Notes: a model not told the origin generated them from the letters alone. A stretch of DNA of 64,000 bases from Alphaproteobacteria bacterium (GCA_965203915.1 OZ241918.1:609532-673531), one strand, 5' to 3'; shown: positions 1 through 58,389, numbered from the stretch's first letter. A program made the numbers and translations.

Positions 1-3000
1 ACAAATTATTCATCCTGACGATTAATAATGTGAATGAATTCGGCACTGGCTTTACATGGGCGCAACAACCGATAGGGGTTAATCAATGGCGCAATGGGGC
101 GAGCGGTCTCATCACGGTGGGTGTTAGTGAAAACAACGCGATGGGTATGGCGGTGGGGCAGTTTGCAGCAACCGATGGCGATCAAGTGGCGGTTACTTAC
201 AATTTGGGCGGCACCGATGCGGCATATTTTAGCATCAACAACAATGGTGCTCTAACCTTAAAATCAAGTTTAAATTATGAAGATAGCGTTCATACGGCGA
301 AAAATTATAGCGTGGTGGTAACGGCAACATCGACCGATGGCAGCCCCGCGGTCAGCAGTTTGTTCGTGGTGTCGTTGGGTAATGTGGATGATAATGCCAC
401 GGTGTGGAGTGGAACCCCCGCCACGGGCGTAGCGGTCAATGAAACAGCGGGCATAACCAATACCGTGGTTCTTTCAACGCGGGTGTCGCTGGCCGATTTC
501 AGGGCGATTGATGCCGACGGGCAAACGGTAAAATATAGTCTGGCGGGTGATACAGCGGGTATGTTTAGCATCGACAGCAATGGGGTATTATATCGGACGC
601 GTAATGTGGATTATGAAACAAGCCAACATCAATTCTCTGTAACGGTATGGGCATGGGGCGCGGCAAACACTGATGGCATTGCCAACGATGGTGCTGGTAT
701 CAACAAATTATTCATCCTGACGATTAATAATGTGAATGAATTCGGCACTGGCTTTACATGGGCGCAACAACCGATTGGGACTAATCAATGGCGCAATGGG
801 GCGAGCGGGCTCGTCACGGTGGGTGTTAATGAAAACAACGCGATGGGTATGGCGGTGGGGCAGTTTGCAGCAACCGACGGCGACCAAGTGGCGGTTACTT
901 ACAATTTGGGCGGCACCGATGCGGCATATTTTAGCATCAACAACAATGGTGCTCTAACCTTAAAATCAAGCCTGGATTATGAAAGCACCCACGTGGGTAA
1001 AAATTATAGCGTGGTGGTAACAGCAACATCGACCGATGGTAGCCCCGCGGTCAGTAGTTTGTTCGTGGTGTCGTTGGGTAATGTGGATGATAATGCCACG
1101 GTGTGGAGTGGAACCCCTGTCACGGGCGTAGCGGTCAATGAAACAGCGGGCATAACCAATACCGTGGTTCTTTCAACGCGGGTGTCGCTGGCCGATTTCA
1201 GGGCGATTGATGGCGACGGGCAAACGGTAAAATATAGTCTGGCGGGTGACACAGCGGGTATGTTTAGCATTGACAGCAATGGGGTATTATATCGGACGCG
1301 TAATGTGGATTATGAAACAAGCCAACATCAATTCTCTGTAACGGTATGGGCATGGGGCGCGGCAAACACTGATGGCATTGCCAACGATGGTGCTGGTATC
1401 AACAAATTATTCATCCTGACGATTAATAATGTGAATGAATTCGGCACTGGCTTTACATGGGCGCAACAACCGATTGGGACTAATCAATGGCGCAATGGGG
1501 CGAGCGGGCTCGTCACGGTGGGTGTTAATGAAAACAACGCGATGGGTATGGCGGTGGGGCAGTTTGCAGCAACCGACGGCGACCAAGTGGCGGTTACTTA
1601 CAATTTGGGCGGCACCGATGCGGCATATTTTAGCATCAACAACAATGGTGCTCTAACCTTAAAATCAAGCCTGGATTATGAAAGCACCCACGTGGGTAAA
1701 AATTATAGCGTGGTGGTAACAGCAACATCGACCGATGGTAGCCCCGCGGTCAGTAGTTTGTTCGTGGTGTCGTTGGGTAATGTGGATGATAATGCCACGG
1801 TGTGGAGTGGAACCCCCGCCACGGGCGTAGCGGTCAATGAAACAGCGGGCATAACCAATACCGTGGTTCTTTCAACGCGGGTGTCGCTGGCCGATTTCAG
1901 GGCGATTGATGGCGACGGGCAAACGGTAAAATATAGTCTGGCGGGTGACACAGCGGGTATGTTTAGCATCGACAGCAATGGGGTATTATATCGGACGCGT
2001 AATGTGGATTATGAAACAAGCCAACATCAATTCTCTGTAACGGTATGGGCATGGGGCGCGGCAAACACTGATGGCATTGCCAACGATGGTGCTGGTATCA
2101 ACAAATTATTCATCCTGACGATTAATAACGTGAATGAACTTGGCACGGGCTTTACATGGGCGCAACAACCGATTGGGACTAATCAATGGCGCAATGGGGC
2201 GAGCGGGCTCGTCACGGTGGGTGTTAATGAAAACAACGCGATGGGTATGGCGGTGGGGCAGTTTGCAGCAACCGACGGCGACCAAGTGGCGGTTACTTAC
2301 AATTTGGGCGGCACCGATGCGGCATATTTTAGCATCAACAACAATGGTGCTCTAACCTTAAAATCAAGCCTGGATTATGAAAGCACCCACGTGGGTAAAA
2401 ATTATAGCGTGGTGGTAACAGCAACATCGACCGATGGTAGCCCCGCGGTCAGTAGTTTGTTCGTGGTGTCGTTGGGTAATGTGGATGATAATGCCACGGT
2501 GTGGAGTGGAACCCCCGCCACGGGCGTAGCGGTCAATGAAACAGCGGGCATAACCAATACCGTGGTTCTTTCAACGCGGGTGTCGCTGGCCGATTTCAGG
2601 GCGATTGATGGCGACGGGCAAACGGTAAAATATAGTCTGGCGGGTGACACAGCGGGTATGTTTAGCATCGACAGCAATGGGGTATTATATCGGACGCGTA
2701 ATGTGGATTATGAAACAAGCCAACATCAATTCTCTGTAACGGTATGGGCATGGGGCGCGGCAAACACTGATGGCATTGCCAACGATGGTGCTGGTATCAA
2801 CAAATTATTCATCCTGACGATTAATAACGTGAATGAACTTGGCACGGGCTTTACATGGGCGCAACAACCGATAGGGGTTAATCAATGGCGCAATGGGGCG
2901 AGCGGTCTCATCACGGTGGGTGTTAGTGAAAACAACGCGATGGGTATGGCGGTGGGGCAGTTTGCAGCAACCGACGGCGACGGGGTATCTGTTACTTACA

Positions 3001-6000
3001 GTTTGAGTGGCGCCGATGCGGGGAATTTTAGCATCAACAACAATGGTGCCCTGACCTTGAAATCAAGCCTGGATTATGAAAGTCGCGTGGGTAAAAATTA
3101 CAGCGTGGTGGTAACAGCAACATCGACCGATGGCAGCCCCGCGGTCAGCAGTTTGTTCGTTGTAAGTTTGCAAGACAGCGTCAAAGAATTTGTGTGGACC
3201 AATAACCCAAGCGGCGCGTCTATTTCTGAAACGGCGGCGTTGGTGGGGGCTACGGTGGCGGATTTCAATATTGGTGGCGGTGCGGGCGGCACGGCCTTTA
3301 CCGAAGGAACAGGTTCTGGCTATTGGCTGGTTCAGGGATTTGGCGATGTAGCGCAATTTAATCTTAATCAGCAAACGGGGGTTCTAACATTAAGGGGTGC
3401 CCGTGATTATGAAACGGATCATGCTGGACGCCCTGACCATCGGTTTTCGGTGGCGGTGGGTGCGTGGCGCGATGGCGGTGGAGAGGTTAGCCATGTATTT
3501 GTTTTAACGGTGACCGATGCTAATGAAGCAATGGCGTTCCAATGGCAAGCCCAGCCCTTGTCTAATGCGCAATATAGCCAGGGGGTTAACCTTGGGTGGA
3601 GTGGGGCAAGCAGCACGATAGTTGCGAATATTAGCGAAAGTATAACGGTTGGTGGGTTGCAAGTGGCAAAATTCAAAGGCGTTGACGCTGATATTGGGGT
3701 TTATGTTACCTATAACCTGGGCGGCACCGATGCGACCTATTTCAGCATCGACACCAACGGGCGTTTGTATTTGGCATCGAATTTGGATTATGAAAGCACT
3801 CATGTAGGTAAAAATTATAGCGTGGTGGTCACGGCGAAATCGACCGATGGTAGTGCGGCGATTAGCAACATGGTGGTGATAAGCCTGAGCAATGTGGATG
3901 ATAATGCCACGGCGTGGAGTGGAACCCCTGTCACGGGCGTAGCGGTCAATGAAACAGCGGGCATAACCAATACCGTGGTTCTTTCAACGCGGGTGTCGCT
4001 GGCCGATTTCAGGGCGATTGATGGCGACGGGCAAACGGTAAAATATAGTCTGGTGGGTGACACAGCGGGTATGTTTAGCATCGACAGCAATGGGGTATTA
4101 TATCGGACGCGTAATGCGGATTATGAAACAAGCCAACGTCAATTCTCGGTAACGGTATGGGCATGGGGCGCGGCAAACACCGGGGGCATTGCCAACGATG
4201 GTGCTGGTATCAACAAATTATTCATCCTGACGATTAATAATGTGAATGACGGCGCAACCAATTTTACATGGGCGCAACAACCGATTGGGGCTAATCAATG
4301 GCGCAATGGGGCGAGCGGTCTCATCACGGTGGGTGTTAATGAAAACAACGCGATTGGTATGGCGGTGGGGCAGTTTGCAGCAACCGATGGCGATCAAGTG
4401 GCGGTTACTTACAATTTGGGCGGCACCGATGCGGCATATTTTAGCATCAACAACAATGGTGCTCTAACCTTAAAATCAAGTTTAAATTATGAAGATAGCG
4501 TTCATACGGCGAAAAATTATAGCGTGGTGGTAACGGCAACATCGACCGATGGCAGCCCCGCGGTCAGCAGTTTGTTCGTGGTGTCGTTGGGTAATGTGGA
4601 TGATAATGCCACGGTGTGGAGTGGAACCCCCGCCACGGGCGTAGCGGTCAATGAAACAGCGGGCATAACCAATACCGTGGTTCTTTCAACGCGGGTGTCG
4701 CTGGCCGATTTCAGGGCGATTGATGCCGACGGGCAAACGGTAAAATATAGTCTGGCGGGTGATACAGCGGGTATGTTTAGCATCGACAGCAATGGGGTAT
4801 TATATCGGACGCGTAATGTGGATTATGAAACAAGCCAACATCAATTCTCTGTAACGGTATGGGCATGGGGCGCGGCAAACACTGATGGCATTGCCAACGA
4901 TGGTGCTGGTATCAACAAATTATTCATCCTGACGATTAATAGTGTGAATGAACTTGGCACTGGCTTTACATGGGCGCAACAACCGATTGGGACTAATCAA
5001 TGGCGCAATGGGGCGAGCGGTCTCGTCACGGTGGGTGTTAATGAAAACAACGCGATTGGTATGGCGGTGGGGCAGTTTGCAGCAACCGACGGCGATCAAG
5101 TGGCGGTTACTTACAATTTGGGCGGCACCGATGCGGCATATTTTAGCATCAACAACAATGGCGCCCTGACCTTAAAATCAAGCCTGGATTATGAAGATGG
5201 TGTCCATACGGCGAAAAATTACAGCGTGGTGGTAACAGCAACATCGACCGATGGTAGCCCCGCGGTCAGCAGTTTGTTCGTGGTGTCGTTGGGTAATGTG
5301 GATGATAATGCCACGGTGTGGAGTGGAACCCCTGTCACGGGCGTAGCGGTCAATGAAACAGCGGGCATAACCAATACCGTGGTTCTTTCAACGCGGGTGT
5401 CGCTGGCCGATTTCAGGGCGATTGATGGCGACGGGCAAACGGTAAAATATAGTCTGGCGGGTGACACAGCGGGTATGTTTAGCATTGACAGCAATGGGGT
5501 ATTATATCGGACGCGTAATGTGGATTATGAAACAAGCCAACATCAATTCTCTGTAACGGTATGGGCATGGGGCGCGGCAAACACCGGGGGCATTGCCAAC
5601 GATGGTGCTGGTATCAACAAATTATTCATCCTGACGATTAATAATGTGAATGAATTCGGCACTGGCTTTACATGGGCGCAACAACCGATTGGGACTAATC
5701 AATGGCGCAATGGGGCGAGCGGGCTCGTCACGGTGGGTGTTAATGAAAACAACGCGATGGGTATGGCGGTGGGGCAGTTTGCAGCAACCGACGGCGACCA
5801 AGTGGCGGTTACTTACAATTTGGGCGGCACCGATGCGGCATATTTTAGCATCAACAACAATGGTGCTCTAACCTTAAAATCAAGCCTGGATTATGAAAGC
5901 ACCCACGTGGGTAAAAATTATAGCGTGGTGGTAACAGCAACATCGACCGATGGTAGCCCCGCGGTCAGTAGTTTGTTCGTGGTGTCGTTGGGTAATGTGG

Positions 6001-7949
6001 ATGATAATGCCACGGTGTGGAGTGGAACCCCCGCCACGGGCGTAGCGGTCAATGAAACAGCGGGCATAACCAATACCGTGGTTCTTTCAACGCGGGTGTC
6101 GCTGGCCGATTTCAGGGCGATTGATGGCGACGGGCAAACGGTAAAATATAGTCTGGCGGGTGACACAGCGGGTATGTTTAGCATCGACAGCAATGGGGTA
6201 TTATATCGGACGCGTAATGTGGATTATGAAACAAGCCAACATCAATTCTCTGTAACGGTATGGGCATGGGGCGCGGCAAACACTGATGGCATTGCCAACG
6301 ATGGTGCTGGTATCAACAAATTATTCATCCTGACGATTAATAATGTGAATGAATTCGGCACTGGCTTTACATGGGCGCAACAACCGATTGGGACTAATCA
6401 ATGGCGCAATGGGGCGAGCGGGCTCGTCACGGTGGGTGTTAATGAAAACAACGCGATTGGTATGGCGGTGGGGCAGTTTGCAGCAACCGACGGCGACCAA
6501 GTGGCGGTTACTTACAATTTGGGCGGCACCGATGCGGCATATTTTAGCATCAACAACAATGGCGCCCTGACCTTAAAATCAAGCCTGGATTATGAAAGCA
6601 CCCACGTGGGTAAAAATTACAGCGTGGTGGTAACAGCAACATCGACCGATGGCAGCCCCGCGGTCAGCAGTTTGTTCGTGGTGTCGTTGGGTAATGTGGA
6701 TGATAATGCCACGGCGTGGAGTTCAACCCCCGCCACAGGCATCGCGATTGATGAAAAGGCAGGAATAATCAATAGCGTCGCTCTTGGCGTGCTAGCTTCG
6801 GTTGCGAATTTCAAGGCACTTGATGCCGATGGTCAAACGGTAACCTATAGCTTGGATGGGGCGGATAAATGGATGTTCAGCATAGACAGCAATGGGGTAT
6901 TATACCGAACAAATGATGTGGATTATGAAACAAGCACTTCTTGGCGCCCCAGCCATCAATTTTCGGTAACGGTGTGGGCGTGGGGCGCGGCAAACAGCGG
7001 TGGTATCGTTAACGGTGGTGCTGGCATCAGTAAATTGTTTGTGTTGACTATTAATAATATTAGTGAACCAACTAATTTTTCTAGCACACCAAGCACGGGT
7101 ATCGCCGTTAACGAAAACAATGTCGTGGGATTAACGGTGGGTAGTTTCCGCGCGATTGATGGTGACGGGGCGGCGGTAACATATAGCCTTGGCGGCACCG
7201 ATGCGACATACTTCAGTATTGATACGAATGGTAATTTAAAATTAAGATCAATTTTGGATTTTGAAGATGCGAATCATACAGCCCATAATTACAGCGTGGT
7301 GGTGCAGGCAACATCGACCGATGGCGGTGCCACGATTAGCAGCGCGTTTGTGTTGTCGTTGGGTAATGTTGCGGGGGCAAACCATGCCGACCACACGGCT
7401 TACATCGACGGCACCACGGCGACCCATGTGGTGAATGTGGGTGGCATTATTGGCCATGGCGAATCGGGCAATATTGATTATGCCAATGTGCAATTCCATG
7501 GCGTTAATTACACCGACAAAGTTATTACGCACAATGTTGCCCCCGATGGTTTACAATCAACCATGGTGGATTATGTGTCGCGTGGCATTAGCGATCTGGA
7601 ATCTTTACGAATAAGTTTCAACGGCTTCACCGATACCGATGGCAGCAAACGTAACCATTGGTTCTTCGTCCAGGATGATGCAACCGACAACAGCGGGCAT
7701 ATTGTGTTCGATGCCGATGGCCAGAATGTAAACCTGCATAGTTTTGCTAATGGCGGCGGTTTAGCAACTGCTGACCAAATCAACCTGCTTGCTGGTTCGA
7801 ACTACGGCATTGACGGCGACTTCGCCAAACCAACCGACTTGAATTTGAACTTGGCTTCCGACCTATTGCACCAAAACATCGCGGGGGCATTGACCTTCGA
7901 CCAATTCCTCGCCCTCCTCGGCGGCAGCCAGCATATCAGCTTTGTTTAA
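1..7949 (+). CDS. Giant cadherin-repeat protein A (5'-partial, >2640 aa), putative secreted adhesin
   Basis: Frame is open from position 3 (KLFILTINN...), so the true start lies upstream of the window. Repeats carry ENN, ATDGD, LDYE and NVDDN cadherin Ca2+ motifs. Conserved C-terminal domain at 7383-7949. Confidence 0.9.
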   Translation, partial: KLFILTINNVNEFGTGFTWAQQPIGVNQWRNGASGLITVGVSENNAMGMAVGQFAATDGDQVAVTYNLGGTDAAYFSINNNGALTLKSSLNYEDSVHTAKNYSVVVTATSTDGSPAVSSLFVVSLGNVDDNATVWSGTPATGVAVNETAGITNTVVLSTRVSLADFRAIDADGQTVKYSLAGDTAGMFSIDSNGVLYRTRNVDYETSQHQFSVTVWAWGAANTDGIANDGAGINKLFILTINNVNEFGTGFTWAQQPIGTNQWRNGASGLVTVGVNENNAMGMAVGQFAATDGDQVAVTYNLGGTDAAYFSINNNGALTLKSSLDYESTHVGKNYSVVVTATSTDGSPAVSSLFVVSLGNVDDNATVWSGTPVTGVAVNETAGITNTVVLSTRVSLADFRAIDGDGQTVKYSLAGDTAGMFSIDSNGVLYRTRNVDYETSQHQFSVTVWAWGAANTDGIANDGAGINKLFILTINNVNEFGTGFTWAQQPIGTNQWRNGASGLVTVGVNENNAMGMAVGQFAATDGDQVAVTYNLGGTDAAYFSINNNGALTLKSSLDYESTHVGKNYSVVVTATSTDGSPAVSSLFVVSLGNVDDNATVWSGTPATGVAVNETAGITNTVVLSTRVSLADFRAIDGDGQTVKYSLAGDTAGMFSIDSNGVLYRTRNVDYETSQHQFSVTVWAWGAANTDGIANDGAGINKLFILTINNVNELGTGFTWAQQPIGTNQWRNGASGLVTVGVNENNAMGMAVGQFAATDGDQVAVTYNLGGTDAAYFSINNNGALTLKSSLDYESTHVGKNYSVVVTATSTDGSPAVSSLFVVSLGNVDDNATVWSGTPATGVAVNETAGITNTVVLSTRVSLADFRAIDGDGQTVKYSLAGDTAGMFSIDSNGVLYRTRNVDYETSQHQFSVTVWAWGAANTDGIANDGAGINKLFILTINNVNELGTGFTWAQQPIGVNQWRNGASGLITVGVSENNAMGMAVGQFAATDGDGVSVTYSLSGADAGNFSINNNGALTLKSSLDYESRVGKNYSVVVTATSTDGSPAVSSLFVVSLQDSVKEFVWTNNPSGASISETAALVGATVADFNIGGGAGGTAFTEGTGSGYWLVQGFGDVAQFNLNQQTGVLTLRGARDYETDHAGRPDHRFSVAVGAWRDGGGEVSHVFVLTVTDANEAMAFQWQAQPLSNAQYSQGVNLGWSGASSTIVANISESITVGGLQVAKFKGVDADIGVYVTYNLGGTDATYFSIDTNGRLYLASNLDYESTHVGKNYSVVVTAKSTDGSAAISNMVVISLSNVDDNATAWSGTPVTGVAVNETAGITNTVVLSTRVSLADFRAIDGDGQTVKYSLVGDTAGMFSIDSNGVLYRTRNADYETSQRQFSVTVWAWGAANTGGIANDGAGINKLFILTINNVNDGATNFTWAQQPIGANQWRNGASGLITVGVNENNAIGMAVGQFAATDGDQVAVTYNLGGTDAAYFSINNNGALTLKSSLNYEDSVHTAKNYSVVVTATSTDGSPAVSSLFVVSLGNVDDNATVWSGTPATGVAVNETAGITNTVVLSTRVSLADFRAIDADGQTVKYSLAGDTAGMFSIDSNGVLYRTRNVDYETSQHQFSVTVWAWGAANTDGIANDGAGINKLFILTINSVNELGTGFTWAQQPIGTNQWRNGASGLVTVGVNENNAIGMAVGQFAATDGDQVAVTYNLGGTDAAYFSINNNGALTLKSSLDYEDGVHTAKNYSVVVTATSTDGSPAVSSLFVVSLGNVDDNATVWSGTPVTGVAVNETAGITNTVVLSTRVSLADFRAIDGDGQTVKYSLAGDTAGMFSIDSNGVLYRTRNVDYETSQHQFSVTVWAWGAANTGGIANDGAGINKLFILTINNVNEFGTGFTWAQQPIGTNQWRNGASGLVTVGVNENNAMGMAVGQFAATDGDQVAVTYNLGGTDAAYFSINNNGALTLKSSLDYESTHVGKNYSVVVTATSTDGSPAVSSLFVVSLGNVDDNATVWSGTPATGVAVNETAGITNTVVLSTRVSLADFRAIDGDGQTVKYSLAGDTAGMFSIDSNGVLYRTRNVDYETSQHQFSVTVWAWGAANTDGIANDGAGINKLFILTINNVNEFGTGFTWAQQPIGTNQWRNGASGLVTVGVNENNAIGMAVGQFAATDGDQVAVTYNLGGTDAAYFSINNNGALTLKSSLDYESTHVGKNYSVVVTATSTDGSPAVSSLFVVSLGNVDDNATAWSSTPATGIAIDEKAGIINSVALGVLASVANFKALDADGQTVTYSLDGADKWMFSIDSNGVLYRTNDVDYETSTSWRPSHQFSVTVWAWGAANSGGIVNGGAGISKLFVLTINNISEPTNFSSTPSTGIAVNENNVVGLTVGSFRAIDGDGAAVTYSLGGTDATYFSIDTNGNLKLRSILDFEDANHTAHNYSVVVQATSTDGGATISSAFVLSLGNVAGANHADHTAYIDGTTATHVVNVGGIIGHGESGNIDYANVQFHGVNYTDKVITHNVAPDGLQSTMVDYVSRGISDLESLRISFNGFTDTDGSKRNHWFFVQDDATDNSGHIVFDADGQNVNLHSFANGGGLATADQINLLAGSNYGIDGDFAKPTDLNLNLASDLLHQNIAGALTFDQFLALLGGSQHISFV
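30..6720 (+). repeat. Near-identical 699/702-bp tandem units (two cadherin domains, 233/234 aa), interrupted by other modules at ~3160-3880
   Basis: Unit starts near 30, 732, 1431, 2130, 2829 and again from ~4240. Shadow antisense ORFs recur at 305, 1004, 1703, 2402, 4517, 5219, 5918 and 6617 (spacing 699-702). Confidence 0.95.
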
Positions 7950-7967
7950 TTAAGTTTTAAACTTAAT
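7949..7967. repeat. Perfect inverted repeat overlapping the stop codon (ATTAAGTTT-T-AAACTTAAT)
   Basis: Read directly; an identical copy lies at 39212-39230 after gene D. Confidence 0.8.
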
Positions 7968-8107
7968 ACCGCGCCCCTTTAATAGGATGGGGTTGGGTCG
8001 CCACAGCCATTTATCGTGCCCTGTTGGCTATAATAGGCAAGGAAGACATTGTTACTCCTTTTAATGCTCATACTGGAGAGGCCTCCCGCCCCTATTATCA
8101 AGCGTAA

Positions 8108-8150
8108 AGGCTTAAATCAGCTCAATAAGCCTAGTTATTTTATTATATTT
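8108..8150 (+). terminator. Putative intrinsic terminator (AGGCTTA-N11-TAAGCCT followed by a T-rich tract)
   Basis: Stem conserved with a different loop at 39375-39400 and in shorter form at 16043-16064; each is followed by T-rich sequence. Confidence 0.45.
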
Positions 8151-8182
8151 ATTAAAAAGAGCATAATTCAATAATAAAACCC

Positions 8183-8211
8183 TTGAAAGAATTAGCAAAA
8201 TTTACTAAAAT
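8183..8211 (+). promoter_or_regulatory. Sigma70-like promoter of gene B: TTGAAA-N17-TAAAAT
   Basis: Exact 17-bp spacer; homologous arrangement upstream of genes C and E. Confidence 0.65.
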
Positions 8212-8298
8212 AGCTATAATAAGTAGAAAAAAATCTAAAGCCTGTATTTTTTACAATATAAAAATACAAGGACAGTAGTTTTTTTAGGGGTAAAAAAC

Positions 8299-16410: not shown

Positions 16411-16439
16411 TTGACTGTATAAGTATATTTTACTAAAAT
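16411..16439 (+). promoter_or_regulatory. Sigma70-like promoter of gene C: TTGACT-N17-TAAAAT
   Basis: Exact 17-bp spacer, 47 bp upstream of the ATG at 16487; homologous to the gene B promoter. Confidence 0.7.
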
Positions 16440-16486
16440 AATAGCTGTAAATAGCATAAAATAGAAAAATAAAGCAATAAACGGAC

Positions 16487-31822: not shown

Positions 31823-31898
31823 TCCCCGCAGGTTAGAGTTAAATTATATTTCCTTGTTATAGAGAAAATATAGGGACAGAATTTTTATAGGGACAAAC

Positions 31899-39479: not shown

Positions 39480-39481
39480 AG

Positions 39482-39550: not shown

Positions 39551-39589
39551 TTTGTAAACTATATACGGATTATACCCGAAGGGACAACC

Positions 39590-42500
39590 ATGGACTATAG
39601 CTGGAAAAATGCGGGTGGTGGAGGATCACTGATAAAGGAGAATACACCTGCGGGTGCGGTGCTTGCAACATTTGTAGCGCAAGATCCTTGGGCTGGTGAT
39701 GCTTTTTATTATACCTTAAGCGGTGCTGATGCTTGGGCATTTAGTATTGACCTTTATGGTCGTTTGTATTTAAAATACGATAGAGATTATGAAGGTGACA
39801 CTTGGCGTCCTAATCGTCAATTTTCTGTTATCGTTAATGCCTATAATGACGCAGGGGCATGGCAAGCCGCAACCCCGTTTATTTTATCGGTCGCCAATGT
39901 TATCGAGGCGCCCACATTTCAACGGCAACAGCAACCCATCGGTTATAATGTTTGGAGCCAGGCCGATACACCGATGTATGTTAATGTGGTTGAAAACAAC
40001 GCCGCGGGAATGCAGGTAGGAAAATTCTTGGCGTTGGATAAAGAAACGGGCGGGAAGGTAAATTATAGTTTGGCTGGCCGCGATAGTTCTTATTTTTCGA
40101 TAGACAATTCAGGGCGTTTGTTTTTGGTGTCCAGCCTGAATTACGAGGATGCCAGCCATAGCAAAAAATATTACGGGGTAGCGGTGAAGGCAACGTCGCT
40201 TGATGGGATAGCGGTGAGCAACCTGTTTGTGGTGAGTTTGCAAAACAATAGCAATGAATTTGCGTGGACAAATAACCCAATTGGTCTGGATATTTCCGAA
40301 ACGGCTGCGTTGGCTGGTGCGTCGTTGGCGAATTTCGATATTGGAGCGGTGGATGGATCGAACCCCGTGATAGAAGGTGGGAACGATTCGTGGTATTGGC
40401 TAACGAATGGCGATACTTGGGCGTTTGAGATTGATGGGAAAACGGGGGTGTTACGGTTAAAATATCAACTTGATTATGAAGGAGTTAATAGTTGGCGACC
40501 CGACCATCGGTTTTCGGTGGTGGTGAATGCGTGGCGTAATGGTGGGGACAATATCAGCCAATTATTCGTGTTGACGGTCGCCGATGTTAACGAAGCGCCC
40601 GTTTTTCAATGGCAATTGCAACCATTCTGGGGACAAAATAGCGCAGGGGCGTGGAACAATTGGGCAGCGGCCAGCGATACGCGATATTTAAACATAGCCG
40701 AAAACAATGCAGGGGCAGGATCGCAAGTGGCAAAATTCCAAGCGGTGGACCCTGATATTGGCGCGCGGGTGACCTATGACGTGGTTGGGACGGATGCCGC
40801 CTATTTCAGCATTGACAGCAACGGGCGTTTGTATTTGGCATCGAATTTGGATTATGAAAGTGCCCATGCGGGTAAGGTTTACAGCGTGGTGGTAACGGCG
40901 AAATCGACCGATGCCAGCCCGGCGATTACCAACCTGGTGGTGATAACCCTGGGCAACGTGGATGATAATGCCACGGCGTGGAATGTAAGCCCCACCACGG
41001 GCATAGCGGTTAATGAAACAACGGGAATAACCAATACCGTGGTTCGTCCAACGTTGGAGTCGCTGGCCAACTTCAGCGCGGTTGATGCGGACGGACAAAC
41101 GGTAAAATATGCGCTATCGGGCGATTCATGGATGTTCAGCATCGACGGCAATGGGGTATTATATCGGACGCGTAATGTGGATTATGAAACAAACCAACGT
41201 CAGTTCTCGGTAACGGTATGGGCATGGGGCGCGAAGAACACTGGGGGCATTACCAACGAAGGTGCTGGCATCGGCAAATTATTCATCCTGACGATTAATA
41301 ATGTGAATGAATTCACCACGGGTTTTACATGGGCGCAACAGCCGATGTGGGGACAAAATAGCGCAGGGGCGTGGAATAATTGGGCGGCGGCCAGCGACAC
41401 CAGGTTCGTTAATGTAAGTGAAAACAATGCGGTGGGCGTGGCGGTGGGGCAGTTTGCGGCAACCGACGGCGATGGCGTGGCGGTTAATTACAGTTTGAGC
41501 GGTGCCGATGCGGGGTATTTCAGTATCAACAACAATGGCACGCTGAGCTTGATCTCAAGATTAGATTATGAAAGTGCCCATGCTAAAAATTACAGCGTGA
41601 CGGTAACGGCAACATCGATCGATGGCAGTGCCGCGGTCAATAGTTTGTTTGTGGTAAGTTTGCAAGACAACACGAAAGAATTTGGGTGGGTAGGGAACAA
41701 CCTAACGGGTGTGGCTATTTCTGAAACGGCGGCGTTGGTGGGGGTGACGGTGGCGGATTTTAATATCGCGGCGTTGGATAATGGGCCAAGTTTTGTCGAA
41801 GGAACAGGTTCTGGTTATTGGTTAGCGGATAGAGTTGCCGACAATTGGGCATTTAATATTAATCAGCAGACGGGTGTGTTAAAATTGGTTTTTGAGCGGG
41901 ATTATGAATCGGAGCATTCATGGCGGCCCGACCATCGGTTCACGGCGGTGGTGGGCGCATGGCGCGATGGCGGGGGAACAATGACCCAAGTATTTGTGTT
42001 GACGGTGGCGGATGTTAATGAAGCGCCAGCATTCCAATGGCAACCGCAACCATTATGGGGGCAGGACAGCAAAGGTGGGTGGAATAATTGGGCAGCGGCC
42101 AGCGATACGCGATATTTAAACATAACCGAAAATAATATTGTTGGATTGCAAGTGGCAAAATTTCAAGCGGTGGACCCTGATATTGGGGCGCGGGTGACCT
42201 ATAGTTTGGGTGGCGCGGATGCAGCTTATTTTACTATTAATGCCAATGGTGCCTTGAGTTTAAAATCAAGTTTGAATTATGAAGATTCAAATCATGCTGA
42301 TAAAGTTTATAGCGTGGTGGTCAATGCCAAATCGACCGATGGCGGCAGCGATTTTGCCAGCAACCTGGTGGTGATAACGTTGAATAATGATCCCAACGAA
42401 TTTGGTTGGATTAATCGCCCGCGTGGCATTATTCTTTCGGAAACGGCGACTTTACCTGGCACCGTGATCGCAGATTTTAATATTGGACCCCAAGACAATT

Positions 42501-45500
42501 CGGATCCTTTTGTTGAAGGGATAAATTCTGGCTATTGGTTAACGGGTGGCGATGCCTCGCTTTTTAATATTAATTCATATGGTCGGTTATCATTAAAACA
42601 AACGATAGATTATGACACCACAGGCGTGTGGTGGCAGGACAGGGATAGGCAATGGCATAATCCTGACCACCGTTATTCGGTGGTGGTGAATGCCTGGAAC
42701 GGGTCGGCCCCCACCGTCAATCAAGTATTTATCATAACCGTAACCAACGTGAATGATAACCCGACCAATTTTGCATGGGCGCAGCAGCCGTTAGGGGTTA
42801 ATCAATGGCGGAATGCGGCGAATGGACCCATAAGCGTTAATGTTAATGAAAACAATGCTATTGGCATGGCGGTGGGGCAGTTCGCGGCAACGGACGGCGA
42901 TTGGGCGATGGTAACCTACAGTTTGAGTGGCGCGGACGCGGGGTATTTTAATATCAACAACAATGGCACGGTGACCCTGATATCAAGATTGGATTATGAA
43001 GATAGTGCCCATACGGCAAAAAATTATAGCGTGGTGGTAACGGCGACGCCGACCGATGGCAGCTCAGCGGTTATTAGTTTATTTGTGTTGTCGTTAAATA
43101 ATGTGGATGATAATCCCACAGCTTGGAGTTCGACTCCGATAACAGGTATAGCGGTTGATGAAAAAATAGGAATAACCAAGATGGTAACCCTTGGCGTTGC
43201 GTCCGCTATCGCTACCTTCAAGGCACTTGATGCCGACGGACAATTTGTAAATTATGCGCTGGATGGGACGGATAAATGGATGTTCAGCATCGATGGTAAT
43301 GGGGTGTTATATAGGAAATATGATGCGGATTATGAAACAAACAACCGTCAATTTTCTGTAACGATTTGGACTTGGGGTTCACCAGGCAACGGGGCGACAA
43401 CCTGGGGCGCGGGTATCAGCCAATTATTTGTTTTGACGGTGGCGGATGTTAATGAAGCCCCCGTTTTCAAATGGCAAGAACAACCATTCTGGGGGCAAGA
43501 TAGCACAGGGGTATCGAACTTAGGTTGGAGCAATGCGTCTTCCGCCATATTTGTTAACGCGCTTGAAAACAATTTGGTTGGGGCGGATGTAGCAAAATTC
43601 CTAGCGGTGGATAATGATGCGGGTGCCAGGGTAAACTATAGTTTAAGCGGCACCGACGCCAATTATTTTACCATCGACAGCAATGGGCGTTTGTATTTGC
43701 AGTCAAGTTTGGATTATGAAGATAGCGTTCATACGGCTAAAAATTACAGCGTCATTGTGCAAGCCATATCAACCGATGGCGGGCCAATGGTAAGTAATTT
43801 GGTTGTCGTTAATTTGCAAGATAGCGTCACCGAATTTAAATGGGGAACAACAACCAAATTACTTACCGAAGTAAGCGAAGCATCCGCCCTGGCGGGGCTT
43901 ACGGTGGCCGATTTCAATTTGACGGGAACAACCATTACCGAAGGGGTAAATGCGGGTTATTTGTTGGATAATAGACTTGCGGATAATGTGTTATTTACCA
44001 TCGATGCCAAAACTGGCATATTGCGGTTGGCTTATAACCGCGATTATGAAGGGGATAATACATGGCGCCCGAACCATCAATTCACCGCGGTTGTCACTGC
44101 TTGGCATAGCGGCGATGCTAATATCAGCCAAGTATTTATTTTGACGGTGGGTAATGTTAATGACAACCCAACATTATTCCAAGACCAAGGGCAACCATTG
44201 TGGGGCTATGATGCCAATGGGGTATCGAACCGAGGCTATGCCAAGGCTGGTGCGGCGGTGGTGGTTAACATAAGCGAAAATAATGCGGTGGGGATGCAGG
44301 TTGCCAAATTTAAAGCGGTTGATGGCGACGTTGGCGCGTTGGTAAACTATAGTTTAAGCGGCACCGACGCCAATTATTTTAGCATCGACAGCAATGGGCG
44401 TTTGTATTTGCAATCAAGTTTGGATTATGAAAGCACCAGCCGCGTCGGGAAAACTTACAGCGTGGTGGTGCAGGCCGCATCAAACGATGGCAGCCCATCG
44501 ATAAACAATGTGTTTGTGGTTAGCGTTCAAAATAATAATAATGAGTTTGGCTGGACTGCTGCCCCCTCGGCCATATCTTTTGCCTATGGCACCGACATTG
44601 CTGCCATCTCGCTAGCAGATTTTAATATTGGTGCGGTCGATGGTTCGGCCAGTTTTAGCGAAGGAGGACCCAATTCAGCCTATTGGCTAACGGGCGCCGA
44701 TGCCACGTTATTTAATATTGATGCGAAAACGGGGATATTAAAATTGGCACAGCCGCGTGATTATGGCTTGGATGATACATGGCGCCCCACCCACAATTTT
44801 TCGGTGGTGGTGAATGCGTGGCATGCGGGCGCGGCGGCAAATATAAGCCAAATGTTCGTGTTATCGGTTAAAACGGACGCGGTGTGGGCGGCAAGGACGC
44901 CATCGGGCTTCATCAGCGAAAACAATACCGCCAACCTGTTGGTTGCGCAATTTTCGGCCTTTGACAATGCTGCCAATTTGCAAATGACCTATAGTTTGAG
45001 CGGCACCGATGCCAATTATTTTAGCCTTGATAAAGTCAGTGGAAATTTGATTCTTAAATCAAGTTTGGATTATGACGATACCACGCACCCTGCAAAATAT
45101 TATAGCGTGATAGTTAAGGCGAGTTCAGTTGGTGGTATATCGATTGTTGATTCGTTTGTTTTGTCGGTGGGTAATCTTAATGATAATCCTGTCATCTTTA
45201 CCTCGGCGACGGGGGCGGTGTCCTTGCGCCTTAGCGAAAATAATGTTGCGGGAATCCAGGTCGCCGATTTTGCAGCAACCGATCGCGATGCGGGCGCGGT
45301 CATTTCGCAATATAAAATAATCGGTGATGATAGTAATTATTTTACCATCACCAACAATGGCGCGCTTATTTTAAAATCGGCGTTGGATTCTGAAAACCCT
45401 AACCATCGTGCGCAATATTACAGCGTGGTGGTGCAGGCGATATCAAGCGATGGTAGCATGGCCAGTAATATATTTGTGTTATCGCTCGACAATGTTAATG

Positions 45501-48500
45501 ATAATCCCTTGCGGTTTGTTTCTGCCACGGCGGCGACCGTTGTTAATGTAGATGAAAATAATGCCGCTGGTTTGCAAGTAGGGAATTTTGCCGCGCAGGA
45601 TGCCGATGTTGGTGCGACGGTCAGTGGTTATAGCCTAACGGGTGCTGATAGTAATTATTTTAGCATTATCAACAATGGTCTATTGATTTTGAAATCAAGT
45701 TTGGATGCGGAGGATGCCAACCATAGCCAAACTTTCTACAGCATTGGGGTTATTGCAACCGCCACCGATGGCAGCGCAGTAAGCAGCAGTTTCATTTTGT
45801 CGTTGGGCAATGTGAACGATAATGGCGTAACATTTGTTTCGGCAACTGCCCCAGTCTCTATATTTGTTAGCGAAAACAATGCCATCAATGCCGAGGTTGC
45901 CAATTTTGGGGCAAGCGACGGCGATGTGGGCGAGACCATTATCAACTATGCCCTATTCGGTGCCGATAAAAACTTTTTTGACATAGATAACGCAGGACGT
46001 ATAAGGTTAAGATACAGCCTAGATTACGAAGATACAAAACACACTAGATATTACAGCGTCGGCGTCTTGGCGGTATCCAGCGATGGTAATTCGGCGCTTA
46101 ATTCTTTCGTGTTTTCGGTGGCCGATGTAAACGAACCAGTGCAATGGAGCAATGCCAACAGCCATCCCGCAACGGGCAGTGTGGCTGAAACCTATGGCAA
46201 AGTGGCATATGTGTCGCCTGGACAAAGTTATCCCGCCGACCTGGTTGTGCCCGCGTCATCTTTTGATTACAGCCAAGGCAAGACTTTGGATACCGCCGCC
46301 GAGCCAGTTCATTATGTTGGTAGTTTGATACGATTACCCTTCAGTTTGGTTATAAGGGGCACCGCGGATAAACAAGCTCGCGTTGTGCTTTATAATGACG
46401 ATGCAACCTACACCCAAAGGGGTGGTGCAAGCGACGGGGCGCAGGCCACGGGCAGCGCAGCCTATAGCTATACCCTGGCTGCGGGCTCGGTCATAGCTGG
46501 CTATGGTATTTTTGATAGAGGCGCGGGCGGTTACCTCAAGGCTGATAATATGAATGGTTTAACCATCCCTGCCAACACGCGGATCTTAGATATCAACGAA
46601 CAGGGTGATTATTTCCTTGTTAATATTACTGGGGCGCAGAATTTTTTCTTTACTGCCGCTGACCCTGACGGCACCCCTGTTAGTTATTCGCTTATGGGTG
46701 TTGAGGCCAGCAACTTTAGCATCGTTAGCGATTTTAATAACATACGCGGCGTGGGACGGTTATTTTATAACGGCGTTTTGGATTATGACGGCACCAGCAT
46801 TACCCACACCGTGACGGTTGTCGCCAGTTCAGGGGGGCACAGCACCAGCCAATTGTTTGTTTTATCGGTGACGAATGTGAACGACGAACAAACCTATTGG
46901 GTTCTGCATCCCTCACGCGCCATTATTGTGGAAACGTCAGCCACCGCGGGGTTATCCATCGCTCATTTCCAAGCGAACGATTACGACCGTCCACCCCCTG
47001 GCGACAACGCAACCCAAATTACCTATGGGTTGAGCGGCGCCGATGCTAATTTATTTAGTATTAATTCTAGCGGCGATTTAAGCTTAAGAACCACGCTTCC
47101 CTCCCCCGTTGTTAAATCGCTTTATACGGTTATAGTGTTGGCGGGTGGTGTATATGGCGGTGCCCCCATTGGCTATTGGGGACAGCAATCATTAAGGTCA
47201 GAAATATTTGTTTTGAGCGTTCAAAATATTAACGACCAAGCAACCAGTTGGGTGCAGCGTCCAGCCTCCGCCATTATTTCAGAAAATAATGGTGCGGGGA
47301 TCACGGTAGCAAATTTTGTGGTAACCGATGCCGATGGCGCGGGGGTAAGTTATTGGCTGACAGGGGTCGACAATAATTTATTTAGCATGAGCACAAGCGG
47401 CAGATTGCATGTTGTATCGGCGTTGGATTACGAAGCAACCTACAACGGGCATAATGGCCGTGTATTTAGCGTGACAGTGAATGCCATCGGGGTGGATGGT
47501 GGTGCGGGCGTCGGCGCAGGGGCGGTAGCCATCACGCAATTATTTGTGCTGACGGTGAGTAATGTGGATGATAATGCCACGGTGTGGAGTTCGACCCCCG
47601 CCACGGGAATAGCGATTGATGAAAAGTCAGGTGTGGCTGGCGCGCCAGCCTTGGCGACCGTGGTAAGTATCGCGGATTTCGGCGCGATGGATGCCGATGG
47701 TCAGATTGTGAATTATTCCATCAGCAACACCAGCGATTCGTGGGCATTCAGTATCAACAGCAGTGGTGTGTTGTTCCGTAAGAATGATTTTGATTTTGAA
47801 AGCATTGCATTGGGACAATATTTTGGGCCACGCCAGAAATTTTCGGTGACAGTAAATGCTTGGAGCACGCCAGGTAATGGTATCACGACCAACGGTGCGG
47901 CCATCAGCCAATTGTTTGTTTTGACGATTAATGATGTGAATGAACCCACCAATTTTTCTAGCACACCAAGCACGGGTATCGCCGTTAGCGAAAACAATGT
48001 CGTGGGGCTAACGGTGGGTAGTTTCCGCGCGTTTGATGGCGATGGGGTTGCGGTAACATATAGCCTTGGCGGCACCGATGCGACATACTTCAGCATTGAT
48101 ACAAATGGTAATTTAAAATTAAGATCAGTTTTGGATTTTGAAGATAGTGCCCATACGGCAAAAAATTACAGCGTGGTGGTGCAGGCAACATCGACCGATG
48201 GCGGTGCCACGATTAGCAGTGCGTTTGTGTTGTCGTTGGGTAATGTTGCGGGGGCAAGCCATGCCGACCACACGGCATACATCGACGGCACCACGGCGAC
48301 CCATGCGGTGAATGTGGGTGGCATTATTGGTCATGACGATGCGGGTAATATTGATTATGCCAATGTGCAATTCCACGGCGTCAATTACACCGATAAGGTT
48401 ATTACGCACAATGTTGCCCCCGATGGTTTACAATCAACCACGGTGGATTATGTGGTGCGCGGGATTAGCGATTTGGAAAGTTTGAGGATAAGCTTCAACG

Positions 48501-48826
48501 GCTTCACCGACACGGACGGTAGCCAACGCAACCATTGGTTCTTCGTCCAGGATGATGCCACCGACCACAGCGGGCATATTGTGTTTGACGCCGATGGGCA
48601 GAATGTGAATTTGCATGCTTTGAACGATGGCGGTGGTTTAGCAACTTCTGACCAAATTAATTTGCTGGCTGGTTCGAACTACGGCATTGATGGCGACTTT
48701 GCCAAACCAACCGATCTGAATTTGAACTTGGCCTCCGACCCATTGCATCAAAACATCGCGGGGGCATTAACCTTCGACCAATTCCTCGCCCTCCTCGGCG
48801 GCAGTCAGCATATCAGTTTTGTTTAG
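39590..48826 (+). CDS. Giant cadherin-repeat protein E (3078 aa) with one inserted non-cadherin domain
   Basis: Intact ORF, start MDYSWK after AAGGGA. More diverged repeats than in A-D. Insert at ~46193-46633. Conserved C-terminal domain at 48260-48826. Confidence 0.93.
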   Translation: MDYSWKNAGGGGSLIKENTPAGAVLATFVAQDPWAGDAFYYTLSGADAWAFSIDLYGRLYLKYDRDYEGDTWRPNRQFSVIVNAYNDAGAWQAATPFILSVANVIEAPTFQRQQQPIGYNVWSQADTPMYVNVVENNAAGMQVGKFLALDKETGGKVNYSLAGRDSSYFSIDNSGRLFLVSSLNYEDASHSKKYYGVAVKATSLDGIAVSNLFVVSLQNNSNEFAWTNNPIGLDISETAALAGASLANFDIGAVDGSNPVIEGGNDSWYWLTNGDTWAFEIDGKTGVLRLKYQLDYEGVNSWRPDHRFSVVVNAWRNGGDNISQLFVLTVADVNEAPVFQWQLQPFWGQNSAGAWNNWAAASDTRYLNIAENNAGAGSQVAKFQAVDPDIGARVTYDVVGTDAAYFSIDSNGRLYLASNLDYESAHAGKVYSVVVTAKSTDASPAITNLVVITLGNVDDNATAWNVSPTTGIAVNETTGITNTVVRPTLESLANFSAVDADGQTVKYALSGDSWMFSIDGNGVLYRTRNVDYETNQRQFSVTVWAWGAKNTGGITNEGAGIGKLFILTINNVNEFTTGFTWAQQPMWGQNSAGAWNNWAAASDTRFVNVSENNAVGVAVGQFAATDGDGVAVNYSLSGADAGYFSINNNGTLSLISRLDYESAHAKNYSVTVTATSIDGSAAVNSLFVVSLQDNTKEFGWVGNNLTGVAISETAALVGVTVADFNIAALDNGPSFVEGTGSGYWLADRVADNWAFNINQQTGVLKLVFERDYESEHSWRPDHRFTAVVGAWRDGGGTMTQVFVLTVADVNEAPAFQWQPQPLWGQDSKGGWNNWAAASDTRYLNITENNIVGLQVAKFQAVDPDIGARVTYSLGGADAAYFTINANGALSLKSSLNYEDSNHADKVYSVVVNAKSTDGGSDFASNLVVITLNNDPNEFGWINRPRGIILSETATLPGTVIADFNIGPQDNSDPFVEGINSGYWLTGGDASLFNINSYGRLSLKQTIDYDTTGVWWQDRDRQWHNPDHRYSVVVNAWNGSAPTVNQVFIITVTNVNDNPTNFAWAQQPLGVNQWRNAANGPISVNVNENNAIGMAVGQFAATDGDWAMVTYSLSGADAGYFNINNNGTVTLISRLDYEDSAHTAKNYSVVVTATPTDGSSAVISLFVLSLNNVDDNPTAWSSTPITGIAVDEKIGITKMVTLGVASAIATFKALDADGQFVNYALDGTDKWMFSIDGNGVLYRKYDADYETNNRQFSVTIWTWGSPGNGATTWGAGISQLFVLTVADVNEAPVFKWQEQPFWGQDSTGVSNLGWSNASSAIFVNALENNLVGADVAKFLAVDNDAGARVNYSLSGTDANYFTIDSNGRLYLQSSLDYEDSVHTAKNYSVIVQAISTDGGPMVSNLVVVNLQDSVTEFKWGTTTKLLTEVSEASALAGLTVADFNLTGTTITEGVNAGYLLDNRLADNVLFTIDAKTGILRLAYNRDYEGDNTWRPNHQFTAVVTAWHSGDANISQVFILTVGNVNDNPTLFQDQGQPLWGYDANGVSNRGYAKAGAAVVVNISENNAVGMQVAKFKAVDGDVGALVNYSLSGTDANYFSIDSNGRLYLQSSLDYESTSRVGKTYSVVVQAASNDGSPSINNVFVVSVQNNNNEFGWTAAPSAISFAYGTDIAAISLADFNIGAVDGSASFSEGGPNSAYWLTGADATLFNIDAKTGILKLAQPRDYGLDDTWRPTHNFSVVVNAWHAGAAANISQMFVLSVKTDAVWAARTPSGFISENNTANLLVAQFSAFDNAANLQMTYSLSGTDANYFSLDKVSGNLILKSSLDYDDTTHPAKYYSVIVKASSVGGISIVDSFVLSVGNLNDNPVIFTSATGAVSLRLSENNVAGIQVADFAATDRDAGAVISQYKIIGDDSNYFTITNNGALILKSALDSENPNHRAQYYSVVVQAISSDGSMASNIFVLSLDNVNDNPLRFVSATAATVVNVDENNAAGLQVGNFAAQDADVGATVSGYSLTGADSNYFSIINNGLLILKSSLDAEDANHSQTFYSIGVIATATDGSAVSSSFILSLGNVNDNGVTFVSATAPVSIFVSENNAINAEVANFGASDGDVGETIINYALFGADKNFFDIDNAGRIRLRYSLDYEDTKHTRYYSVGVLAVSSDGNSALNSFVFSVADVNEPVQWSNANSHPATGSVAETYGKVAYVSPGQSYPADLVVPASSFDYSQGKTLDTAAEPVHYVGSLIRLPFSLVIRGTADKQARVVLYNDDATYTQRGGASDGAQATGSAAYSYTLAAGSVIAGYGIFDRGAGGYLKADNMNGLTIPANTRILDINEQGDYFLVNITGAQNFFFTAADPDGTPVSYSLMGVEASNFSIVSDFNNIRGVGRLFYNGVLDYDGTSITHTVTVVASSGGHSTSQLFVLSVTNVNDEQTYWVLHPSRAIIVETSATAGLSIAHFQANDYDRPPPGDNATQITYGLSGADANLFSINSSGDLSLRTTLPSPVVKSLYTVIVLAGGVYGGAPIGYWGQQSLRSEIFVLSVQNINDQATSWVQRPASAIISENNGAGITVANFVVTDADGAGVSYWLTGVDNNLFSMSTSGRLHVVSALDYEATYNGHNGRVFSVTVNAIGVDGGAGVGAGAVAITQLFVLTVSNVDDNATVWSSTPATGIAIDEKSGVAGAPALATVVSIADFGAMDADGQIVNYSISNTSDSWAFSINSSGVLFRKNDFDFESIALGQYFGPRQKFSVTVNAWSTPGNGITTNGAAISQLFVLTINDVNEPTNFSSTPSTGIAVSENNVVGLTVGSFRAFDGDGVAVTYSLGGTDATYFSIDTNGNLKLRSVLDFEDSAHTAKNYSVVVQATSTDGGATISSAFVLSLGNVAGASHADHTAYIDGTTATHAVNVGGIIGHDDAGNIDYANVQFHGVNYTDKVITHNVAPDGLQSTTVDYVVRGISDLESLRISFNGFTDTDGSQRNHWFFVQDDATDHSGHIVFDADGQNVNLHALNDGGGLATSDQINLLAGSNYGIDGDFAKPTDLNLNLASDPLHQNIAGALTFDQFLALLGGSQHISFV

Positions 48827-58312: not shown

Positions 58313-58389
<77 letters not shown>

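Follow-up and report, generated by a model that had tools for sequence, protein, structure and literature searches.

The window analysed here, a 64,000-nt stretch of the genome of an Alphaproteobacteria bacterium (G000:C1:609532-673531), is filled over positions 1-48826 by five co-oriented plus-strand genes for giant cadherin-repeat proteins, and raises the question of what such a cluster encodes and how its members came to differ from one another. An original prediction, made on this DNA alone, had described five or more such genes, A-E, with no other genes between them, a constant C terminus and variable bodies. We find that the array is real and that it comprises eight head-to-tail, co-oriented genes, g1-g8 (A-E being g4-g8), which cover 84,053 bp (G000:C1:574305-658357). 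A listing of open reading frames (ORFs) places three of the giant genes upstream of the window, whose edge cuts g4, and the C-terminal 200 aa of gene E, used as a genome-wide query for the further copies that the prediction had called for, retrieves eight, all on the plus strand of contig C1. No ORF of at least 200 aa lies between the five genes in window 1-48826, and none of at least 250 aa between the eight array genes (C1:574305-658357). Based on the observations described below, we propose with moderate confidence that the locus encodes type-I-secreted, calcium-stiffened, rod-like cadherin adhesins, and that duplication, unequal crossing-over and patchy gene conversion have diversified them.

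Cadherin repeats between constant ends

Pfam Cadherin (PF00028; cut-off 28.8) matches protein E in 13 stretches with 422.7 bits (E = 2.1e-129) and protein D in 11 stretches with 340 bits (E = 1.4e-103). A hidden Markov model (HMM) that we built from the array genes themselves finds 214 modules, distributed over g1-g8 as 21, 26, 28, 30, 22, 46, 17 and 24. When three g8 modules were compared with the sequences of the PDB, all 31 matches were animal cadherins (a gamma-protocadherin-type chain at 1.9e-12, CELSR1 at 2.3e-12, and also cadherin-23 and N-cadherin), and the array repeats are thus cadherin repeats of the eukaryotic type. The calcium linker motifs were taken in their usual definitions, DxNDN-like, DRE/LDYE-like and DxD; as counted by loose regular expressions without a shuffled control, they occur in 136, 181 and 141 of the 214 modules, respectively.

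The proteins range in size from 2,437 to about 5,025 aa and resemble one another at both ends. The M(A/V/D)YSWK start foreseen for B-E is present there (MVYSWK, MAYSWK, MAYSWK and MDYSWK in g5-g8) and begins all eight proteins as M[A/V/D]YSWK; the first ~110 aa are nearly alike in g1-g7. At the other end, every array pair shares 88-100% identity over the final ~190 aa, and the last 200 aa of the window genes are 88-93% identical to those of gene E, with a ~188-aa domain ending in ...GGSQHISFV, in agreement with the near-identical end of 187-188 aa that had been ascribed to all five genes. Constancy had been assigned to the C terminus, which holds; the N-terminal module, missed at that stage, is equally constant. 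Each array protein consists of a constant N-terminal cadherin module, 17-46 variable cadherin repeats and a constant C-terminal domain of ~190 aa.

In the C-terminal domain, nonsynonymous divergence (dN) is about 0.05 and synonymous divergence (dS) 0.30-0.59 for every pair except those among g2, g3 and g4, which are identical, and dN/dS is about 0.1; the low dN at such values of dS indicates that the domain is under purifying selection and is not just the product of recent conversion. Comparison with Pfam (only sub-threshold noise at E <= 10) and NCBIfam assigned the domain to no family. Its predicted model is of moderate quality, with a predicted local distance difference test score (pLDDT) of 66.4 and a predicted TM-score (pTM) of 0.70, and gave no fold match in the PDB and no lead in the Atlas. 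A profile of the last 120 aa, run against 1.84 billion representative proteins, returned 19 matches at E <= 0.001, 11 of them at <= 1e-10. Seven of the nine matches that were scanned carry Pfam Cadherin, with the profile match at the C terminus; in two of those seven only the first half of the profile is matched, at a protein end that looks cut. The remaining two, one an M23/PEP-CTERM protein and the other an FG-GAP protein, appear unrelated, and a search for longer homologous proteins gave three matches, none with a name. Among 41 genomes, the domain is found in G000 and in all three other members of its genus, and in none of the 37 others.

The extreme C terminus carries a tag of ~25 residues (LTFDQFLALLGGSQHISFV and variants), which ends 11 of the 10,067 six-frame ORFs of the genome, all of them cadherin genes: the eight of the array and three located elsewhere. 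Outside the array, cadherin-repeat ORFs were observed at C1:768657-777137 (+), 1118790-1124555 (-), 1382494-1384303 (-) and 357837-359651 (+). Three of the four end in the tag; at 1382494-1384303 the tag is in a separate frame, so that this ORF is probably frameshifted. In the sister genus, a cadherin-repeat frame of 6,977 aa (G004:C3, about 335500-350000, minus strand) gives no match to the 200-aa C-terminal domain, from which it follows that giant cadherin genes are a family-wide feature and the tag domain a genus-level one.

Mosaic bodies and fast-diverging inserts

Between the constant ends, the order, number and type of modules differ from gene to gene in the maps drawn from our HMM hits (Table 1), as had been predicted. 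A four-module FGH(J) cassette lies towards the N terminus of g2, g3 and g4 and towards the C terminus of g1 and g7, and the copy number of the BC unit varies among the genes. As judged by blastn, g3 shares 98.9% identity with g4 over 10.2 kb, g7 shares 99.4% identity with a 1.77-kb block of g4, and g2 is a mosaic whose 5' 1.75 kb resembles g7 (93.8%) and whose 3' 6.5 kb resembles g3 (98.3%). The shifting position of the cassette, the varying unit numbers and the mosaic blastn blocks bear out the predicted plan of a variable body with a constant C-terminal tag, diversified by recombination. The nearest relative of a module lies in another gene for 131 of the 214 modules, in its own gene for 59 and is tied for 24; the repeats consequently do not cluster strictly by gene, strict clustering being the pattern that the prediction had named as contrary to its own reading. 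The exception is g6, where 42 of 46 modules have their nearest relative inside g6. The median best identity to modules of other genes is 60% for g8 and 77-80% for g5 and g6.

Four routes of diversification are visible in the sequence: (i) tandem duplication of whole genes, (ii) unequal crossing-over, which alters the count of one- or two-module units, (iii) relocation of the four-module cassette and (iv) patchy gene conversion, which evens out the scaffold repeats and spares the inserts.

Six of the eight genes carry one or two non-cadherin inserts within split repeats. The FGH cassette contains two such segments, of about 128 and about 160 aa, and g8 has one of 155 aa. The module that follows each insert begins only at HMM position 9-16, and the residues ahead of the insert resemble a first strand. 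Comparison of three inserts with Pfam at E <= 10 gave sub-threshold noise only. A model of insert 2, predicted from a five-sequence alignment, was too poor to provide a fold (pLDDT 50.1, pTM 0.36) and was set aside.

Among g1, g2, g3 and g7, insert 2 shows identities of 0.52-0.81 and dS values of 0.09-0.86, and the module right after it identities of 0.89-0.96 and dS values of 0.016-0.11, so that two adjacent segments differ about tenfold in synonymous divergence. The insert and the adjacent scaffold accordingly differ in history, the scaffold having been homogenised and the insert not. The dN/dS of insert 2 is 0.47-0.74, with a value of 1.53 for the g1-g3 pair, and is raised, at a level that falls short of proof of positive selection.

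Duplication of the genes took in their upstream regions as well. Over 370 bp, g2, g3 and g4 share the same upstream sequence (100% identity), the regions of g1 and g7 are 82% and 86% identical to it, and this group has a common TTGAC(G/A)-N17-TATAAA box. Scans of the intergenic regions for promoters and terminators gave results near shuffle expectation. Sigma-70-like matches in the four window intergenic regions number 4, 5, 3 and 5 versus shuffle means of 1.8, 3.9, 1.6 and 1.5, as counted with a last-base rule that leaves out the TTGAC(G/A)-N17-TATAAA box; with hexamer counts this close to the shuffle means, the proposed promoter in front of each of B-E is unsupported. A further motif, GGTGATTCGC, was observed twice in each upstream region of g1-g4 and g7, just past the preceding stop codon (in the window, within 31566-31898).

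Table 1. Features of the cadherin gene array. Positions are window positions unless given with the contig. In the module maps, classes were formed by single linkage at 80% identity; a letter stands for a class and a dot for a singleton.
Feature	Position	Strand	Size and modules	Module map or remark
g1		+	2,883 aa, 21 modules	DBIBOBCBCBEP.BLFGHJ..
g2		+	3,484 aa, 26 modules	DQIBEFGHJBCBCBCBEMCBCBCBNK
g3		+	3,709 aa, 28 modules	DBLFGHJBCBCBCBCBCBEMCBCBCBNK
g4 (A)	1..7949	+	full 3,942 aa, 30 modules	g3 pattern plus one extra BC unit; 3' two-thirds in window
g4 start	G000:C1:605652	+		3,880 nt upstream of window
g4 C-terminal constant domain	7383..7946	+	~188 aa	DNA identical to g2 and g3 copies
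Intergenic region upstream of g5	7950..8298	+		33% GC; 80% identical to g8 upstream region
g5 (B)	8299..15880	+	7,582 nt, about 22 modules	Head in common with g6 (R.S), then 15 A-type modules; three frames, two frameshifts
First g5 frameshift	9341..9347	+		G7 run
g5 tandem array	9517..14643	+	306-bp period (one module per unit), 16.5 copies	73% matches, Tandem Repeats Finder
Second g5 frameshift	12092..12097	+		G6 run
g6 (C)	16487..31565	+	15,079 nt, about 46 modules	Head in common with g5 (R.S), then 28 A-type modules; one frameshift
g6 tandem array	18209..29465	+	306-bp period, 36.7 copies	74% matches, Tandem Repeats Finder
g6 frameshift	near 19395-19400	+		Short C run
g7 (D)	31899..39212	+	2,437 aa, 17 modules	DQIBOBCBCB...FGH.; FGH cassette close to C terminus
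g7 insert 1	36537..36914	+	126 aa	In split cadherin module; no Pfam family
g7 insert 2	37551..38024	+	158 aa	In split module; much more diverged among paralogs than next module
g8 (E)	39590..48826	+	3,078 aa, 24 modules	Modules mostly unique; most divergent body of the array
g8 insert	46142..46606	+	155 aa	Homologous to insert 2 of other genes
g8 C-terminal constant domain	48260..48823	+	188 aa	Tag = last ~25 residues, ...LTFDQFLALLGGSQHISFV

Reading frames, tract lengths and assembly support

The prediction of giant co-oriented genes stands for all five in the window as regards orientation, but B (g5) is broken by two frameshifts and C (g6) by one. The g5 pieces lie in three frames (window 8299-9372, 9339-12161 and 12119-15880) and the g6 pieces in two (16487-19441 and 19338-31565); in the other six genes, open frames of 2,437-3,942 aa are intact. 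Support from sequencing runs was assessed with assembled contigs over window 7900-20000. One run, X1, contains 0.77 of the sampled words and probably represents the source sample; X2, X3 and X4 derive from a single sample of another study, which carries the label sponge metagenome, and contain 0.28-0.32. A sponge metagenome contains a close relative of this genome.

At window 9340, the contigs of the second study are one G longer (65.2 of 65.2 depth in X2, 7.2 of 7.2 in X3 and 2.14 of 2.14 in X4), and at window 12092 they are two letters shorter (100 of 100 in X2 and 7 of 12.7 in X4); as judged by codon inspection, both differences keep the g5 frame open in the second population. Within the X1 contigs, no tract-length variant is seen at either site (0 of 64.4 depth at 9340 and 0 of 61.6 at 12092). 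Since the second-population contigs restore the frame and those of X1 do not, the g5 breaks are either real in the source population or shared with its assembly. No indel is present at the g6 frameshift among the matches listed for contigs of X1-X4.

These tracts raise the alternative of a phase-variable contingency repertoire, in which poly-G slippage would switch single paralogs, so that the set of adhesins on a cell, drawn from the eight, would keep changing; a frameshift anywhere in a gene would remove the C-terminal export tag. Both g5 frameshifts fall within poly-G runs whose lengths differ between the two populations and restore the frame, and G9 runs stand in frame within insert 2 of g1, g3 and g4. 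The array contains 7 G runs of at least 7 versus 2.8 expected from its length, and 3 of at least 8 versus 0.9. However, the enrichment is weak, as only 4 of the 36 G/C runs of at least 8 in the genome fall within cadherin genes, a group that occupies 6.1% of the DNA, and the coding strand of the array is G-rich throughout (GC skew about +0.2 in many 2-kb bins). The uniform tract length within X1 contigs points the same way, if weakly, given that contigs hide minor variants; moreover, two independent frameshifts in one gene resemble decay more than a switch, and a housekeeping-type gene downstream of the array is likewise split, near an A7 run. We therefore regard phase variation as unlikely.

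Decay as a general explanation would mean that copies of a family in a shrinking genome are turning into pseudogenes without current function. Frameshifts in two of the eight genes are consistent with this, as is the locus of the sister species (G003), where the same flanks enclose one gene in six ORF pieces, collinear with g1 and 81.5% identical to it over 8,758 nt, compared with 96.1% and 94.5% for the flanks. The six long open frames, the dN/dS of about 0.1 in the C-terminal domain and the absence of both g5 breaks from the second population all argue against it, and recent duplications (g3/g4) indicate gain, not loss; we consider decay highly improbable.

The single gene at the syntenic locus of G003 means that the array differs between species or that the G003 assembly collapsed it; an invariant array across strains, which the prediction had listed among the outcomes that would speak against it, is not what the comparison gives. 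In the two more fragmented assemblies of the genus, of 40 and 90 contigs, the C-terminal domain turns up at 3 sites and at 1 site, respectively. The one-gene locus also bears on whether assembly inflated a smaller number of genes into the array, or into at least its g2-g3-g4 block, or joined them wrongly. The near-identity of g3 and g4 over 10.2 kb and the identical 370-bp upstream regions and C-terminal domains of g2-g4 would suit such an artefact, and the supporting contigs cover window 7900-20000 only. We nevertheless find it very unlikely, because g1, g5, g6, g7 and g8 are clearly distinct (see the median best identities of g5, g6 and g8 above) and because the g5-g6 junction is bridged both by an X1 contig with 0 differences (window 15851-17209) and by contigs of the independent study (X2, X3 and X4, covering 15951-16585 with 31 differences). 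In addition, X1 depth rises from ~58-69 on unique parts to 257-470 over the shared C-terminal domain, about 4-7-fold, as many copies predict, and the main contig is 1.63 Mb long. Contig joints that skip or go back were considered as rearrangements and rejected; they sit in repeats and stem from short contigs.

The genome comprises 1,685,084 bp in 6 contigs and is 98.97% complete; the main contig has a GC content of 45.6%. The array accounts for 5.0% of the genome, and for 6.1% together with the other cadherin genes. Upstream of the array, inspection of translations points to an Obg-like GTPase, a glutamine synthetase and a CobN-like gene, all with a housekeeping look, and downstream lies a dehydrogenase gene whose DAO/GCV_T assignment Pfam confirms. 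This DAO/FAO_M/GCV_T gene (window 49026-51511) is split into two ORFs of 590 and 235 aa that divide the GCV_T domain, with the break close to the A7 run at about 50765; the ORF of the sister species is intact (828 aa, L021:10797-13283). It is followed by a gene for an MmeI-family restriction-modification enzyme (window 51615-54140) with all four MmeI Pfam domains, whose position in a low-GC stretch (34%, window 52001-54000) points to acquired DNA; in the sister species an ORF of 920 aa occupies this position. The sole tRNA of the window, a tRNA-Pro (GGG) at 58313-58389, is 9.5 kb past the last array gene, so that the locus does not qualify as a tRNA-flanked island; nor did the tRNA scan of the window bring up an integrase-like flank. 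Elsewhere in the assembly, very long homopolymers (C23, G24 and G15) on contigs C4 (8774, 9666) and C6 (6892) may be assembly debris or unusual elements. Of two markers of an intracellular lifestyle, VirB4 (PF03135) has no match in the genome, the control having matched in Caulobacter; TLC (PF03219) likewise gave none, in a search that is uninformative in that its control matched no genome.

Export, function and relation to known systems

Type I secretion appears to be the best fit for the array proteins. They are acidic (pI 4.05-4.97), have only 0-3 Cys in each piece (pieces reach 4,080 aa), and enter a cadherin module at residue 9 from the N terminus, with no signal peptide evident by inspection. 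The genome encodes a PrtD-type ATP-binding cassette (ABC) protein (TIGR01842, 605.5 bits; cut-off 510.15) and an HlyD-type adaptor (TIGR01843, 286.5 bits; cut-off 208.65), the latter adjoined by two TolC-like (OEP) genes, and all four family relatives combine a PrtD-type ABC protein above cut-off with cadherin-repeat ORFs, the longest of 6,977 aa. The type I secretion genes that the prediction had proposed to look for are thus present, and are unlinked, as its caveat had allowed. We envisage that the proteins would be exported C terminus first through this PrtD/HlyD/TolC system, with the extreme C-terminal tag as the putative secretion signal and the inserted domains as candidate ligand-binding parts, and that they may attach the bacterium to the cells or matrix of a host, or to other cells. 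The PrtD-type ABC protein (C1:1555417-1557990, minus strand) has an N-terminal extension of ~200 aa, of low complexity and rich in Pro, Gln, Asn and Arg, and a Gly/Met-rich C-terminal tail, both unusual for the family.

Several observations weigh against this account or limit it. Some 0.9 Mb separates the secretion genes from the array, and the ABC and adaptor genes are themselves about 21 kb apart. The RTX (repeats-in-toxin) nonapeptide GGxGxDxUx occurs in none of the 11 protein pieces and neither Pfam nor NCBIfam gave an RTX family, so the classical calcium-driven folding element of type I substrates is missing. A LapG-type protease (PF06035) has no match in the 98.97%-complete genome (the control matched in Caulobacter), and no retention module was recognised in the array proteins, so that these may be either anchored at the surface or released. 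Ligand binding by the inserts, whose model is poor (pLDDT 50), is suggested by architecture. Two of the eight genes are frameshifted and the orthologue of the sister species is in six pieces, and the near-identical g2-g4 block lies outside the contig-checked stretch.

The same architecture would fit secreted polysaccharide- or matrix-binding proteins equally well, with the cadherin repeats acting as carbohydrate-binding modules in nutrient capture or in a biofilm matrix, a function that has been reported for bacterial cadherin domains. No glycoside hydrolase adjoins the array, however, and the flanks, as judged from their inspected translations, look housekeeping; we give this explanation a small but appreciable chance, and note that polysaccharide binding and cell adhesion are not mutually exclusive. 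Distinctly doubtful in our view is a more elaborate scheme, according to which the array would form a bacterial variable cell-recognition repertoire whose tips diversify on a homogenised scaffold under poly-G switching, and whose export by an undescribed non-RTX C-terminal domain would serve recognition or evasion of sponge cells.

The locus matters in several ways. An investment of 5.0% of a 1.69-Mb genome in one array implies strong selection, as so large a share of the DNA is held in so small a genome. The array provides a long-read-resolved locus for the vague cadherin enrichment noted in sponge-associated bacteria, and the 3 places and 1 place seen in the fragmented assemblies of the genus indicate that short-read metagenome-assembled genomes (MAGs) would under-count such genes. 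Its lineage-restricted C-terminal domain is a candidate non-RTX type I secretion module, its split-repeat inserts, with synonymous divergence about ten times faster than that of the scaffold, are candidate binding sites, and the array as a whole is a natural system in which to follow how unequal crossing-over and gene conversion build adhesin diversity.

The closest parallels are giant type-I-secreted adhesins such as LapA, SiiE, MpIBP, FrhA and the Aeromonas RTX adhesin, which are similar in size, in acidity, in showing no evident signal peptide, in long runs of ~100-aa beta-sandwich repeats with calcium-binding linkers and in a C-terminal region needed for export, the linkers and the export region being putative for the array. 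Their repeats are of the bacterial Ig type, whereas those of the array match Pfam Cadherin and animal cadherins. The array further differs in having no RTX nonapeptides, no LapG homologue and an unlinked PrtD-type ABC protein, and in its eight tandem paralogs, compared with one or two genes in the known cases. Calcium stiffening of the repeats of giant type-I-secreted adhesins is described in the highlights of PMC7493085. Ligand-binding domains emerging from split repeats are described for these adhesins in the abstract of PMC12077191, and in the array the modules after inserts begin at HMM positions 9-16.

CabA-D of Saccharophagus degradans and the Rap proteins of Rhizobium are likewise bacterial proteins built of cadherin-like calcium-binding repeats. 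Rap proteins are secreted by the PrsDE type I system, also in an alphaproteobacterium. For the Cab proteins, passages of PMC12153261 report homophilic and heterophilic binding as well as carbohydrate binding, and bacterial cadherin domains of S. degradans Cab are given as carbohydrate-binding modules (Fraiberg 2010, 2011, as cited in excerpts of PMC10947273 and PMC12153261). Compared by description, neither group yielded a report of an eight-gene tandem array, a ~190-aa C-terminal domain or cassette relocation.

The cadherin-domain 'eukaryotic-like' or attachment proteins of sponge symbionts offer a further comparison, and a relative of this genome occurs in sponge metagenome runs. Cadherin-domain genes are enriched in sponge-associated MAGs (PMC8163846, in excerpt) and have been proposed to mediate attachment (excerpts of PMC8163846 and PMC10947273), and CAD42, a cadherin/FG-GAP protein, is highly expressed in a sponge microbiome (PMC13747020, in excerpt). 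In the excerpted text of these papers domains are counted per MAG, and gene size, tandem arrays, mosaic order and a shared tag are not described. A limited search of full-text literature, without supplements, found no description of a tandem giant cadherin gene array in a sponge symbiont.

Two further systems recall the layout of the array. Vomp/BadA of Bartonella are adjacent alphaproteobacterial adhesin paralogs made of repeated stalk modules and reshaped by recombination; they belong to the trimeric autotransporters (type V secretion) and have their membrane anchor at the C terminus. This likeness is one of layout only, with no known relationship to the array in sequence or export route. 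Clustered protocadherins, with which the prediction had compared the array, share its repeat family, as judged by the PDB matches, and its variable/constant cluster layout. In protocadherins, however, a constant region that is encoded a single time is spliced on, and promoters are chosen stochastically, whereas each array gene has its own constant domains and upstream region, so that the comparison holds for the layout and is an analogy only. The likeness to antigenic-variation arrays, proposed at the same time, is not supported: nothing in the array resembles an expression site with silent cassettes of promoterless, truncated donor copies, and all eight genes have a start codon, both end domains and a conserved upstream region. 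Giant type-I-secreted repeat adhesins and cadherin-domain proteins of bacteria, including sponge symbionts, are already known; what is new here is the eight-gene mosaic array, the genus-restricted non-RTX C-terminal domain with its genome-wide tag, and the contrast in divergence between inserts and scaffold.

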